Shown: positions 36,495 through 37,532 of the stretch, in pieces | Layout of the letters: every line of letters starts with the position of its first letter | Position numbering within the stretch: the first letter of the stretch is position 1 | Source of the DNA: an uncultured delta proteobacterium | GTDB taxonomy: Bacteria > Myxococcota_A > Polyangia > Polyangiales > Polyangiaceae | Assembly: GCA_963731595.1 (NCBI GenBank) | Contig: CAVSWE010000003.1 | Span: forward strand, 108,948 to 172,947 | Length of the DNA: 64,000 nt | Direction: 5' to 3' | Notes under the pieces: model-generated | Told to the model about the DNA's origin: nothing | Seen by the model: the letters and a program-made list of their open reading frames with translations, nothing else | Databases searched by the model: none | Made by a program: the position numbers and the translations under genes

Positions 36495-37430
36495 ATGAAA
36501 AAGGGGCTTTTTGCGCTTTTCTTCGCTTCGGCCGAAGCGGTCGCCGCCGTGATGGGCGGGTGCGGGAACAACGGCAACGGCGTCGGCGACTCGGGCTTCG
36601 ACGCGACCGGAAACGACGACGTCTCGACGCAGCCCGTCGACGCCGCGAAAGACGCGCCGTTAGACGCCGCCAAGACCGACGCCCCCGGCTTCGTCTGGCC
36701 CGACTGCACCTCGCAGCCGCAGGGCGTCCCGACCAAGACGATCCCCGAGCTCTGGACCGACGACCCGACGACGCCGACGCAAGTCTGGCTCGCGGGCGTT
36801 TACGTGACCGCCGTGTCGAAGGGCGCGTGCGTCGCGGGCACCGCGTGCGAGGTCATCGTGCAGCAAGATCCGACGTATGCGTCGCTCGAGGCCGGCGCGC
36901 AGCACGCGATCCGCGCGTGGATCTCGAGCTCGACCGCGAAGTACTTCGCGTCGCTCGCGGTCGGCGACCAGGTGGACATGATGGCCTACGCGTACCGCGA
37001 GAGCGAAGGCGGCCAGAACGAGCTCATCCTCCACGTCGATCTCCTCGAGCCCGGCTGCGCGCTCAAAATCGGCAGCGGAACGCCCACGCCGATCCAGGGC
37101 GTCGCGCTCGCCGACATCGGCTCGCTCGCCGCCTACGAGCAGATCTACGGACCGCTGTTGATGCAGATCGCCAACGTCACCGGCACGCCCAAGCAGCCGG
37201 ATCAGACGTTCGGACTCGGCAACACCTTCTTCGACGGCGGCGCGAGCGACGCGCAGATCGTGAGCCTCAGCCCGTACTACATGGACGGCGGCGCGTTCGT
37301 CGGCCTCGAGGCAGGCGTGAAGACGAAGTTCTCCTCGGTGACGGGCGTCTTCAACGAGTACTTCAACCCCGACGCCTCGGCGACCAAGTACCTCGAACTA
37401 GGCGCCCGTACCCCTGCCGACTACCCCTGA
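36495..37430 (+). CDS. hypothetical secreted protein / lipoprotein
   Basis: ORF 36459-37430. Met at 36495 gives signal MKKGLFALFFASAEAVAAVMGGC. Gly/Asn/Asp-rich N-terminus then protein-like domain. Confidence 0.6.
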   Translation: MKKGLFALFFASAEAVAAVMGGCGNNGNGVGDSGFDATGNDDVSTQPVDAAKDAPLDAAKTDAPGFVWPDCTSQPQGVPTKTIPELWTDDPTTPTQVWLAGVYVTAVSKGACVAGTACEVIVQQDPTYASLEAGAQHAIRAWISSSTAKYFASLAVGDQVDMMAYAYRESEGGQNELILHVDLLEPGCALKIGSGTPTPIQGVALADIGSLAAYEQIYGPLLMQIANVTGTPKQPDQTFGLGNTFFDGGASDAQIVSLSPYYMDGGAFVGLEAGVKTKFSSVTGVFNEYFNPDASATKYLELGARTPADYP

Positions 37431-37532
37431 GAGATTGAACAGGAAGGTCAGAAGCCGCCCACCTCGGCTCCACCAGCCACCCCCCCAAAAAATCCCTTCT
37501 GATCTTCTGATCCCCCTGTTTTTCTCTCTCTC
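37429..37532. repeat. MITE-like intergenic element copy 2
   Basis: gagagattgaacaggaaggtcagaag ... cccttctgatcttctgatccccctgtttttctctctctc. Same terminal inverted repeats as 29333-29470, different AT-rich core. Its ends overlap the TGA of 36495-37430(+) and the stop of 37531-37944(-). Confidence 0.55.

Follow-up and report, generated by a model that had tools for sequence, protein, structure and literature searches.

A dispersed foldback repeat, probably a recent insertion, fills the gap between two convergent stop codons in a Polyangiaceae-like genome

We examined a 64,000-nucleotide stretch of contig CAVSWE010000003.1 from an uncultured delta proteobacterium of the Polyangiaceae (hereafter the window, whose numbering is used throughout), in which an AT/C-rich island at 37429-37532 interrupts sequence of ~70% G+C. 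The island, designated copy 2, is an imperfect palindrome that fills the entire gap between the TGA stop codons of two convergent genes, here called gene A and gene B. It is probably a partly decayed member of a family of dispersed, non-coding foldback repeats, ~50-360 bp long, of Polyangiaceae-like Myxococcota, and one that was inserted recently at this site. A reading made from the sequence alone had described the island as the second copy of a MITE-like element (MITE, miniature inverted-repeat transposable element) with ends at the stop codons of both flanking genes, and had suggested that such elements either prefer to insert at gene ends or supply the stop codons themselves.

Gene A stops at the TGA at 37428-37430 and gene B at a TGA that reads tca at 37531-37533 on the + strand, confirming that both ends of the element coincide with the stops; the interval between the two codons is exactly 100 nt (37431-37530), all of it copy 2. 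The left end, GAGAGATTGAACAGGAAGGTCAGAAG (37429-37454), and the right end, CTTCTGATCTTCTGATCCCCCTGTTTTTCTCTCTCTC (37496-37532), enclose a C/A-rich core. In the hairpin the outermost stem is cTGAGAGA...TCTCTCAg, and the stop codons of gene A and gene B pair with each other. The left outer stem takes in the gene A stop and carries an asymmetric TTG bulge, which is a marker of one side of the element; the right outer stem takes in the gene B stop and, with 37519-37520, yields a run of five T. Copy 2 is partly decayed, its left arm having lost the second octamer of the family arm and its core being non-palindromic. The second octamer is kept in the relative whose gene A is 95% identical (locus L169), which reads ...GGTCAGAAGATCA at the point where copy 2 is truncated. 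Logan unitigs L001 and L002 (ERR11594406), from the same organism as the window, break inside copy 2 from both sides; this is the usual behaviour of a multi-copy repeat and supports the repeat nature of copy 2. Many gene A orthologues lie on contigs of 1-2 kb that end just past the gene, and the repeat family fragments short-read assemblies.

The other copy in the window (copy 1) lies between convergent genes at 27795-29324 (+) and 29486-30991 (-, with a cytochrome c domain). The left end of copy 2 is identical to positions 29333-29358 of copy 1 at 24 of 26 nucleotides (0.00 matches expected in shuffled sequences), and the window holds four matches to a 17-nt core of the arm, which form two inverted pairs (0.05 expected). 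The proposed element at 37429-37532 is thus real, a palindrome with arms in common with copy 1. The statement that the two copies have the same terminal repeats holds for the arms but not for the full 37-nt right end of copy 2, which has no second match at three or fewer mismatches. No further copies or related hairpins were found in the 64 kb. RNA folding compared with shuffled sequences gave z = -4.8 (+ strand) and -2.6 (- strand) for copy 2 and z = -9.3 and -10.8 on the two strands for copy 1; with DNA parameters the values were -3.3 for copy 2 and -6.8 for copy 1.

The family extends well beyond the window. Matches to the arm were listed in several Polyangiaceae metagenome-assembled genomes (MAGs), two other deltaproteobacterial MAGs and at least 44 soil-metagenome contigs, and the family table holds ~42 copies with both arms. 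The pattern first used on a genome collection was too short, with ~100 of the 113 loci listed being chance matches, and its result says nothing on cultured Sorangium or Polyangium. Viral contigs held no matches to the family, and Rfam returned nothing at gathering score in the window, the sub-threshold matches being only generic long-hairpin miRNA precursors. The 64 kb of the window hold two copies, and seven 8-kb loci from a single MAG together hold no fewer than 12.

The table of ~42 copies defines consensus arms and a variable core. The arms are two inverted 26-nt sequences, AACAGGAAGATCAGAAGATCAGAAGG on one side and the complement on the other. Each consists of GAAGATCA octamers in tandem, the number of which varies, and in all paired copies the arms are accompanied by a GAGAG/CTCTC stem as terminal inverted repeats. 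The outer stem is purine-rich on one side and pyrimidine-rich on the other, usually cGAGAG...CTCTCg. Arms are near-identical among the paired copies, whereas cores and flanks are unrelated; the cores span ~15-300 nt, differ wholly between most copies and are often palindromic themselves, and some subfamilies have cores in common. Four dispersed copies in one MAG are alike in both arms and core at 79% identity, the similarity stopping at GAGAG/CTCTC. Solo arms are also present. Arm positions are 88% consensus on both sides, with changes that are mostly A/G transitions. Core bases adjacent to the arms complement those of their own partner at 5.29 of 10 positions against 3.48 for shuffled partners, a value reached in none of 2000 shuffles. 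Ungapped covariation of the outer stem was not significant (396 of 2000 shuffles), and in an RNAalifold analysis of 23 copies the arms were too invariant for covariation, with two compensatory pairs.

Several copies are composite. In L013a, a second complete element sits at the exact apex of the first, giving a nested element of 362 nt (L013:1120-1481) whose un-nested relatives are found at L013:5821-5976 and L105:6144-6322. A second, different pair of repeat arms lies outside the first pair in L119, L133 and L049. At L135:109-1486, an IS3-family insertion sequence (IS) with OrfA (211-543) and a DDE-type OrfB (540-1409) stands between left and right family arms. The IS has its own ends and was inserted into a family member; it is not the parent element. 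The right half matches the element of L133 and L119. Two other hairpins were observed just 3′ of stop codons: at L049:6790-6940, (GGGCTTTG)n arms enclose an AACAGG-type element, and at L168:1328-1400 the arms are made of (GCCAAGAC)n subrepeats. Hairpins with subrepeat arms may be a general feature of these genomes.

We compared the junction of gene A and gene B at nine loci including the window, with identities expressed as identity to gene A. The genes around the junction keep a conserved order, in which a vault-protein-like gene is followed by those for a methyltransferase and a 368-aa protein, by gene A, by the oppositely oriented gene B and by a GH31 glycosidase. In L169 (95%) the element is present with the same left junction, TGAGAGATTGAACAGG. 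The site is empty in L162 (87%), where the stops overlap as ccCTAAcg, in L164 (75%), where TGA abuts CTA, and in L165 (73%) and L166 (66%), with spacers of 34 and 3 nt, respectively. L161 (76%) has, exactly between TGA and the old CTA, a member of a G-enriched subfamily (AACAGGGAGATCGGAGAGATCGGGAG...) whose other arm is altered to match. In L163 (79%) the place between TAG and CTA is filled exactly by a hairpin of another, unrelated family, with arms of (GCCGATA)n, and L160 (81%) contains two arm copies and ~950 bp with a PF05635 gene and (CCACGG)n-type repeats. The comparison with element-free relatives (L162, L164, L165 and L166), the check that had been proposed for copy 2, shows the native gene termini.

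In a neighbour-joining tree of gene A, built on one protein and without support values, the empty loci L166 and L165 are basal, and two clades each join a filled locus to an empty sister. It is for that reason more economical to assume that elements inserted here repeatedly and independently than that they were lost precisely time after time. The (GCCGATA)n hairpin (L163:2437-2750) includes a ~185-nt tandem duplication containing the last ~25 nt of gene A, and mixed elements joining (GCCGATA)n arms with an AACAGG arm were seen in L134 and L158. The complex insert of L160 (3931-4890) comprises two arm copies in the same orientation, (GGCCCC)n and (CCACGG)n-type repeats and a 105-aa PF05635 gene. 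PF05635 is the 23S rRNA-intervening-sequence protein family, often found in intervening or mobile contexts.

With coding frames assigned by third-position G+C, nearly all of the ~42 copies have a stop codon 0-50 nt from an arm. Approximately 14 lie between convergent genes, ~20 between tandem genes and one in an apparently divergent pair, so that the suspected preference for gene ends is borne out as a pattern. This bias may reflect true targeting or the survival of harmless insertions only, and either fits. A separate idea, insertion into pre-existing palindromes, was rejected as anecdotal: flank-to-flank pairing amounted to 19.97 pairs against 17.97 in shuffled sequences (~2 standard deviations), and the individual cases are GCCC/GGGC at copy 1 and the apex position in L013a.

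The signs of mobility observed are dispersed copies, subfamilies, presence/absence polymorphism and nesting at hairpin tips. In the reading that we prefer, copy 2 would have entered the gene A/gene B locus recently, into a zero-length gap between abutting stops. It would have been mobilised in trans by a putative enzyme that leaves no target-site duplication, and elements of this kind would land in, or survive only in, the 3′ junctions of genes and the tips of existing hairpins. Transcripts from either gene would fold into a long hairpin beginning at the stop codon, followed on the + strand by UUUUUCUCUCUC. By analogy with REP (repetitive extragenic palindrome), ERIC and Correia-type repeats, this hairpin would most likely serve to stop transcription in both directions or to protect transcript 3′ ends, a role that we infer from its position, its stability and the UUUUUCUCUCUC tail on the + strand. 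The + strand has UUUUU after CCCCCUG, and the tail on the - strand is CAAUCUCUC.

Several observations weigh against this account. At the junction, repeated precise loss instead of gain is possible, given a tree of a single protein without support values. Target-site duplications are absent from the filled and empty junctions (TGA/element/TCA in the window and TGA/element/CTA in L161, compared with TGA/CTA in L164). A search for an autonomous partner, with arms 0.5-3 kb apart, in ~1.2 Mb of related loci yielded no transposase with these ends, the sole transposase between arms being the unrelated IS3 insertion in L135. Variability of the cores far exceeds that known from classical MITE families. 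Concerning function, a scan for consensus promoters and terminators gave nothing at copy 1 or copy 2, and the stem is long and AT-rich, with a mixed U/C tail in place of a clean U-tract. Arm changes compatible with G-U pairing are equally frequent for either strand (38 versus 38), so arm variation says nothing on whether the element acts as RNA or as DNA.

The strongest competitor to insertion of a foldback repeat in this form is a classical cut-and-paste MITE, an internally deleted IS whose ~37-bp terminal inverted repeats are recognised by a DDE transposase. We consider this unlikely, although long terminal inverted repeats, insertion polymorphism and subfamilies would all suit it, and the family does consist of many dispersed copies of small size that lack a transposase of their own. 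A core inherited from a parent IS would be expected to be common to the copies, but most cores are unrelated, with sharing confined to subfamilies, and neither a partner IS nor a full-length version was seen in the loci compared. The two resolvable junctions have no target-site duplication, the sequence outside the arms varies by subfamily, so that the conserved part is subterminal, and viral contigs are without matches. With no target duplication and no common core, the strict MITE definition fails; the label MITE-like stands loosely, for inverted arms, dispersed copies, filled and empty sites and the lack of convincing coding at the site.

A second possibility, which we regard as improbable, is a REPIN mobilised through single-stranded hairpin DNA by a RAYT, which is an IS200/IS605-type Y1 transposase. 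Here the whole element is indeed a hairpin, extragenic at gene 3′ ends and without target-site duplication, and it serves as an IS insertion target as REPs do. Single arms, however, are not palindromic and fold at only -1.9 to -2.1 kcal/mol through GATC pairing, and the ends read cGAGAG with no conserved GTAG or CGTC, GTAG occurring sporadically inside GAGTAGGA in one subfamily. As single arms are unfolded and the GTAG/CGTC tag is missing, the REPIN definition also fails. We therefore judge the element to be MITE/REP-like in behaviour and a strict member of neither class. It does not resemble an integron attC site either, as the ends (...TTGAAC/AACAGG and CCTGTT/TCTC) do not fit GTTRRRY and the copies are placed at convergent gene pairs rather than in arrays.

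Whether the element supplies the stop codons was considered separately. Gene A ends ...ADYP* at the same codon in more than 20 orthologues, and gene B ends ...PEAL(R/K)* at one and the same codon in loci that have the element and in loci that lack it. Both stops are thus at their ancestral positions, and copy 2 did not truncate, extend or terminate either gene. The proposal that the element supplies the stops is consequently not supported for copy 2. That the insertion disrupted the original gene ends, leaving the TGAGAG.../...CTCTCA termini to end gene A, gene B or both, is accordingly doubtful. Its attractions are that both stops lie inside the outermost stem, that gene B stops at TGA here and at TAG in most relatives, and that insertion at an overlapping CTAA, as in the nearest empty site (L162), must regenerate a stop. 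Against it, the stop positions are those of element-free orthologues, the abutting TGA/CTA of L164 is a clean insertion point, and copy 1 and most family members begin cGAGAG, without a TGA. Two convergent TGA codons are inverted repeats by definition, and for this reason TGA/TCA lengthens the palindrome. Where stops abut, as in L164, their boundary is the sole harmless insertion point, which explains why element ends coincide with stops; the unrelated hairpin of L163 shows the same exact fit between two stops. The insertion event may nonetheless have reshaped the identity of the gene B stop codon. Elsewhere in the family, element-supplied stops do occur, and these are precedents for the disruption scenario: gene B of L161 has a 1-nt frameshift and now stops at the TAA formed by cctgTTA of the arm end, and in ~5 further copies the upstream open reading frame (ORF) meets its first in-frame stop at the TGA of xTGAACAGG.

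It is very improbable that the arms serve a host protein as signals for binding or uptake, kept by selection and not spread by transposition. Strong conservation is limited to the arms, the cores and outer stems being variable; solo arms are known and each arm has two GATC sites, all of which would suit such a signal; yet 26-nt arms are long for this purpose, whole elements including their cores are duplicated within one genome, a nested insertion was observed, and we know of no candidate binding protein. Ordinary, vertically inherited intergenic DNA with an immobile native terminator would place a stable hairpin between convergent genes, where a terminator is expected, but we give this hardly any credence: the 26-nt arms recur at dozens of unrelated loci in several genomes, and the outcome that would speak for such DNA was not seen, since close relatives have no spacer at all at the junction and the arms are dispersed. 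Equally implausible is a small protein encoded by copy 2, where a TTG at 37435 opens a 77-codon ORF, MNRKVRSRPP...PSDLLIPLFFSLS, that resembles a signal peptide and uses the frame serving as one in other genes, because this ORF crosses conserved gene B in antisense and has no in-frame gene downstream, element lengths are not constant modulo 3 and the ORF of most copies stops after 10-40 codons. The whole family as a coding element was rejected on the same grounds, with lengths of 49-362 nt falling in all three classes modulo 3.

Although copy 2 is best explained as a non-coding foldback insertion, other copies point to a second use. In many, one side has GGAGAG and an ATG, GTG or TTG directly 5′ of AACAGG. 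Translated from that start, the purine-rich arm reads MNRKIRRSEGG, and the pyrimidine-rich arm with the CTCTC stem reads PSDLLIFLFLSLS. In tandem contexts where this start side faces the downstream gene, the two are in frame in 8 of 11 copies, or 7 of 10 when orthologous loci are counted once, with the downstream frame fixed independently by codon-position G+C; a binomial estimate for this excess is ~0.01-0.02, against a chance expectation of one in three. By Pfam, the downstream ORFs are real genes, encoding HEAT repeats, an M48-like peptidase, an NMT1-like binding protein and a pseudopilin. Several have a lipobox or AxA cleavage site directly after the element peptide (LLICLFLLLPAC; LLIFLFVFLVGC; LLIFLFTLLFSSPASA/L). 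A peptide-profile search brought up DUF4266 lipoproteins that start with MMNRKIRRSEGRRGVALSDLLIFLFVSLSGC and whose Pfam domain follows immediately on the cysteine. Among 120 orthologues of a TPR/TadD-like lipoprotein, many begin with an intact or diverged element peptide, and others with ordinary unrelated lipoprotein signals. Unrelated genes (TPR/TadD-like lipoprotein, DUF4266, HEAT-repeat and M48-like) thus appear to have captured the element repeatedly as a lipoprotein or Sec signal peptide. Two of the in-frame cases, the NMT1-like protein and the pseudopilin, more probably use a native start that lies downstream of the element. The start-side ORFs of copies 1 and 2 run antisense into neighbouring genes, with no signal-peptide use there. 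Proteins with the putative signal peptide are P0103, P0104, P0109, P0111 and P0114.

In such a portable signal, GGAGAG would provide a Shine-Dalgarno-like sequence within the stem, ATG, GTG or TTG the start codon, MNRKIRRSEGG the n-region and PSDLLIFLFLSLS the h-region. Tentatively, the family might be a mobile hairpin with two uses, terminator-like at 3′ junctions and, in one frame, a portable start with a secretion signal. In that case a selfish palindrome would give rise, time and again, to signal peptides and to 5′ mRNA hairpins that occlude the start site, and the family would show clearly, for bacteria, how mobile DNA is recruited to provide secretion signals.

Features of copy 1, copy 2 and its flanking genes, and family copies apparently used as signal peptides. 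Positions without a locus prefix refer to the window.
Feature	Position	Strand	Basis or remark
Copy 1, near-perfect 144-nt hairpin	29331..29474	none	Arm matches, inverted-repeat and fold analysis
Gene A, secreted or lipoprotein-like, 311 aa	36495..37430	+	ORF list; homologues; synteny
Left outer stem of copy 2, cTGAGAGATTG	37427..37437	none	Sequence, fold, family table
Left arm of copy 2, AACAGGAAGGTCAGAAG, truncated	37438..37454	none	Second GAAGATCA octamer lost
Variable core of copy 2, C/A-rich, non-palindromic	37455..37494	none	Sequence, family table
Right arm of copy 2, CCTTCTGATCTTCTGATCCCCCTGTT	37495..37520	none	Reverse complement of family arm, 2 mismatches
Right outer stem of copy 2, TTTCTCTCTCTCAg	37521..37534	none	Sequence, fold
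Gene B, small secreted protein, 137 aa	37944-37531	-	ORF list; orthologues
Signal-peptide copy	L142:2123-2202	-	
Signal-peptide copy	L044:4372-4451		
Signal-peptide copy	L159:774-850		
Signal-peptide copy	L122:2868-2950	-	
Signal-peptide copy	L118:7793-7860		

Neither flanking gene matched a family in a Pfam search. Gene A has 102 homologues and a conserved C-terminus, ...ADYP*, and gene B orthologues of 136-143 aa occupy the same place in related loci. Elsewhere in the window, ~31008-33020 (-) encodes a bacterial protein homologous to the major vault protein of eukaryotes. Its orthologues, of 653-670 aa, match Pfam MVP_shoulder and Vault_3, and the methyltransferase adjoins them in all related loci. 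At 17886-18102, GC-rich tandem repeats with periods of 15 and 9 nt (CGCCGCCGCCCGCGC...) presumably represent Pro/Ala-rich low-complexity coding sequence.

Full-text literature searches turned up nothing relevant on Sorangium or myxobacterial MITEs or REPINs, or on the arm sequence itself, and the family apparently represents widespread, previously undescribed palindromic repeats of large-genome soil myxobacteria. Its build is unusual in the octamer-repeat arms, the highly variable core and the nesting at hairpin tips. At the locus studied, the outcome is two intact genes with native stops and a 100-nt spacer that is probably a recent insertion. One junction of convergent stops has been colonised, it would seem repeatedly, by several hairpin families. 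Repeats of this kind could mislead gene callers at both gene ends.

Among known systems, the stop-proximal distribution is that described for REP, ERIC and Correia-type repeats. The REP, BIME and REPIN sequences of enterobacteria and pseudomonads are likewise extragenic hairpins at gene 3′ ends and convergent junctions, without target-site duplication. They too are mosaic or nested, are preferred targets for IS elements (here IS3 in L135) and are presumed to stabilise or terminate transcript 3′ ends. They differ from the present family, in which the 26-nt arms consist of purine-rich octamers in tandem, fail to fold individually and have no GTAG/CGTC tag. Correia/NEMIS elements of Neisseria and ERIC/IRU elements of enterobacteria, both bacterial MITEs, are palindromes of ~100-150 bp with conserved inverted ends, found near stop codons, co-transcribed with their neighbours and polymorphic in insertion between strains. 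These have a conserved interior and a TA target duplication, in contrast to the variable core and absent duplication of the present family. Rickettsia palindromic elements and Coxiella MITEs offer a parallel for the coding use, as in-frame palindromic repeats that give rise to peptide segments. The Rickettsia elements, however, insert within the coding regions of many proteins, whereas coding use here takes the form of a start codon and signal peptide, and copy 2 is non-coding. Terminators made of inverted DNA uptake sequences in Neisseria or uptake signal sequences in Haemophilus also consist of a conserved short sequence in inverted pairs with a variable spacer 3′ of genes; those sequences are 10-12 nt long and maintained by the transformation machinery, in contrast to 26-nt arms and duplication of whole elements. 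Eukaryotic foldback (FB) transposons have long inverted arms made of short tandem subrepeats, variable in number, around a variable central loop, an analogy of architecture only, across a different domain of life and scale of size.

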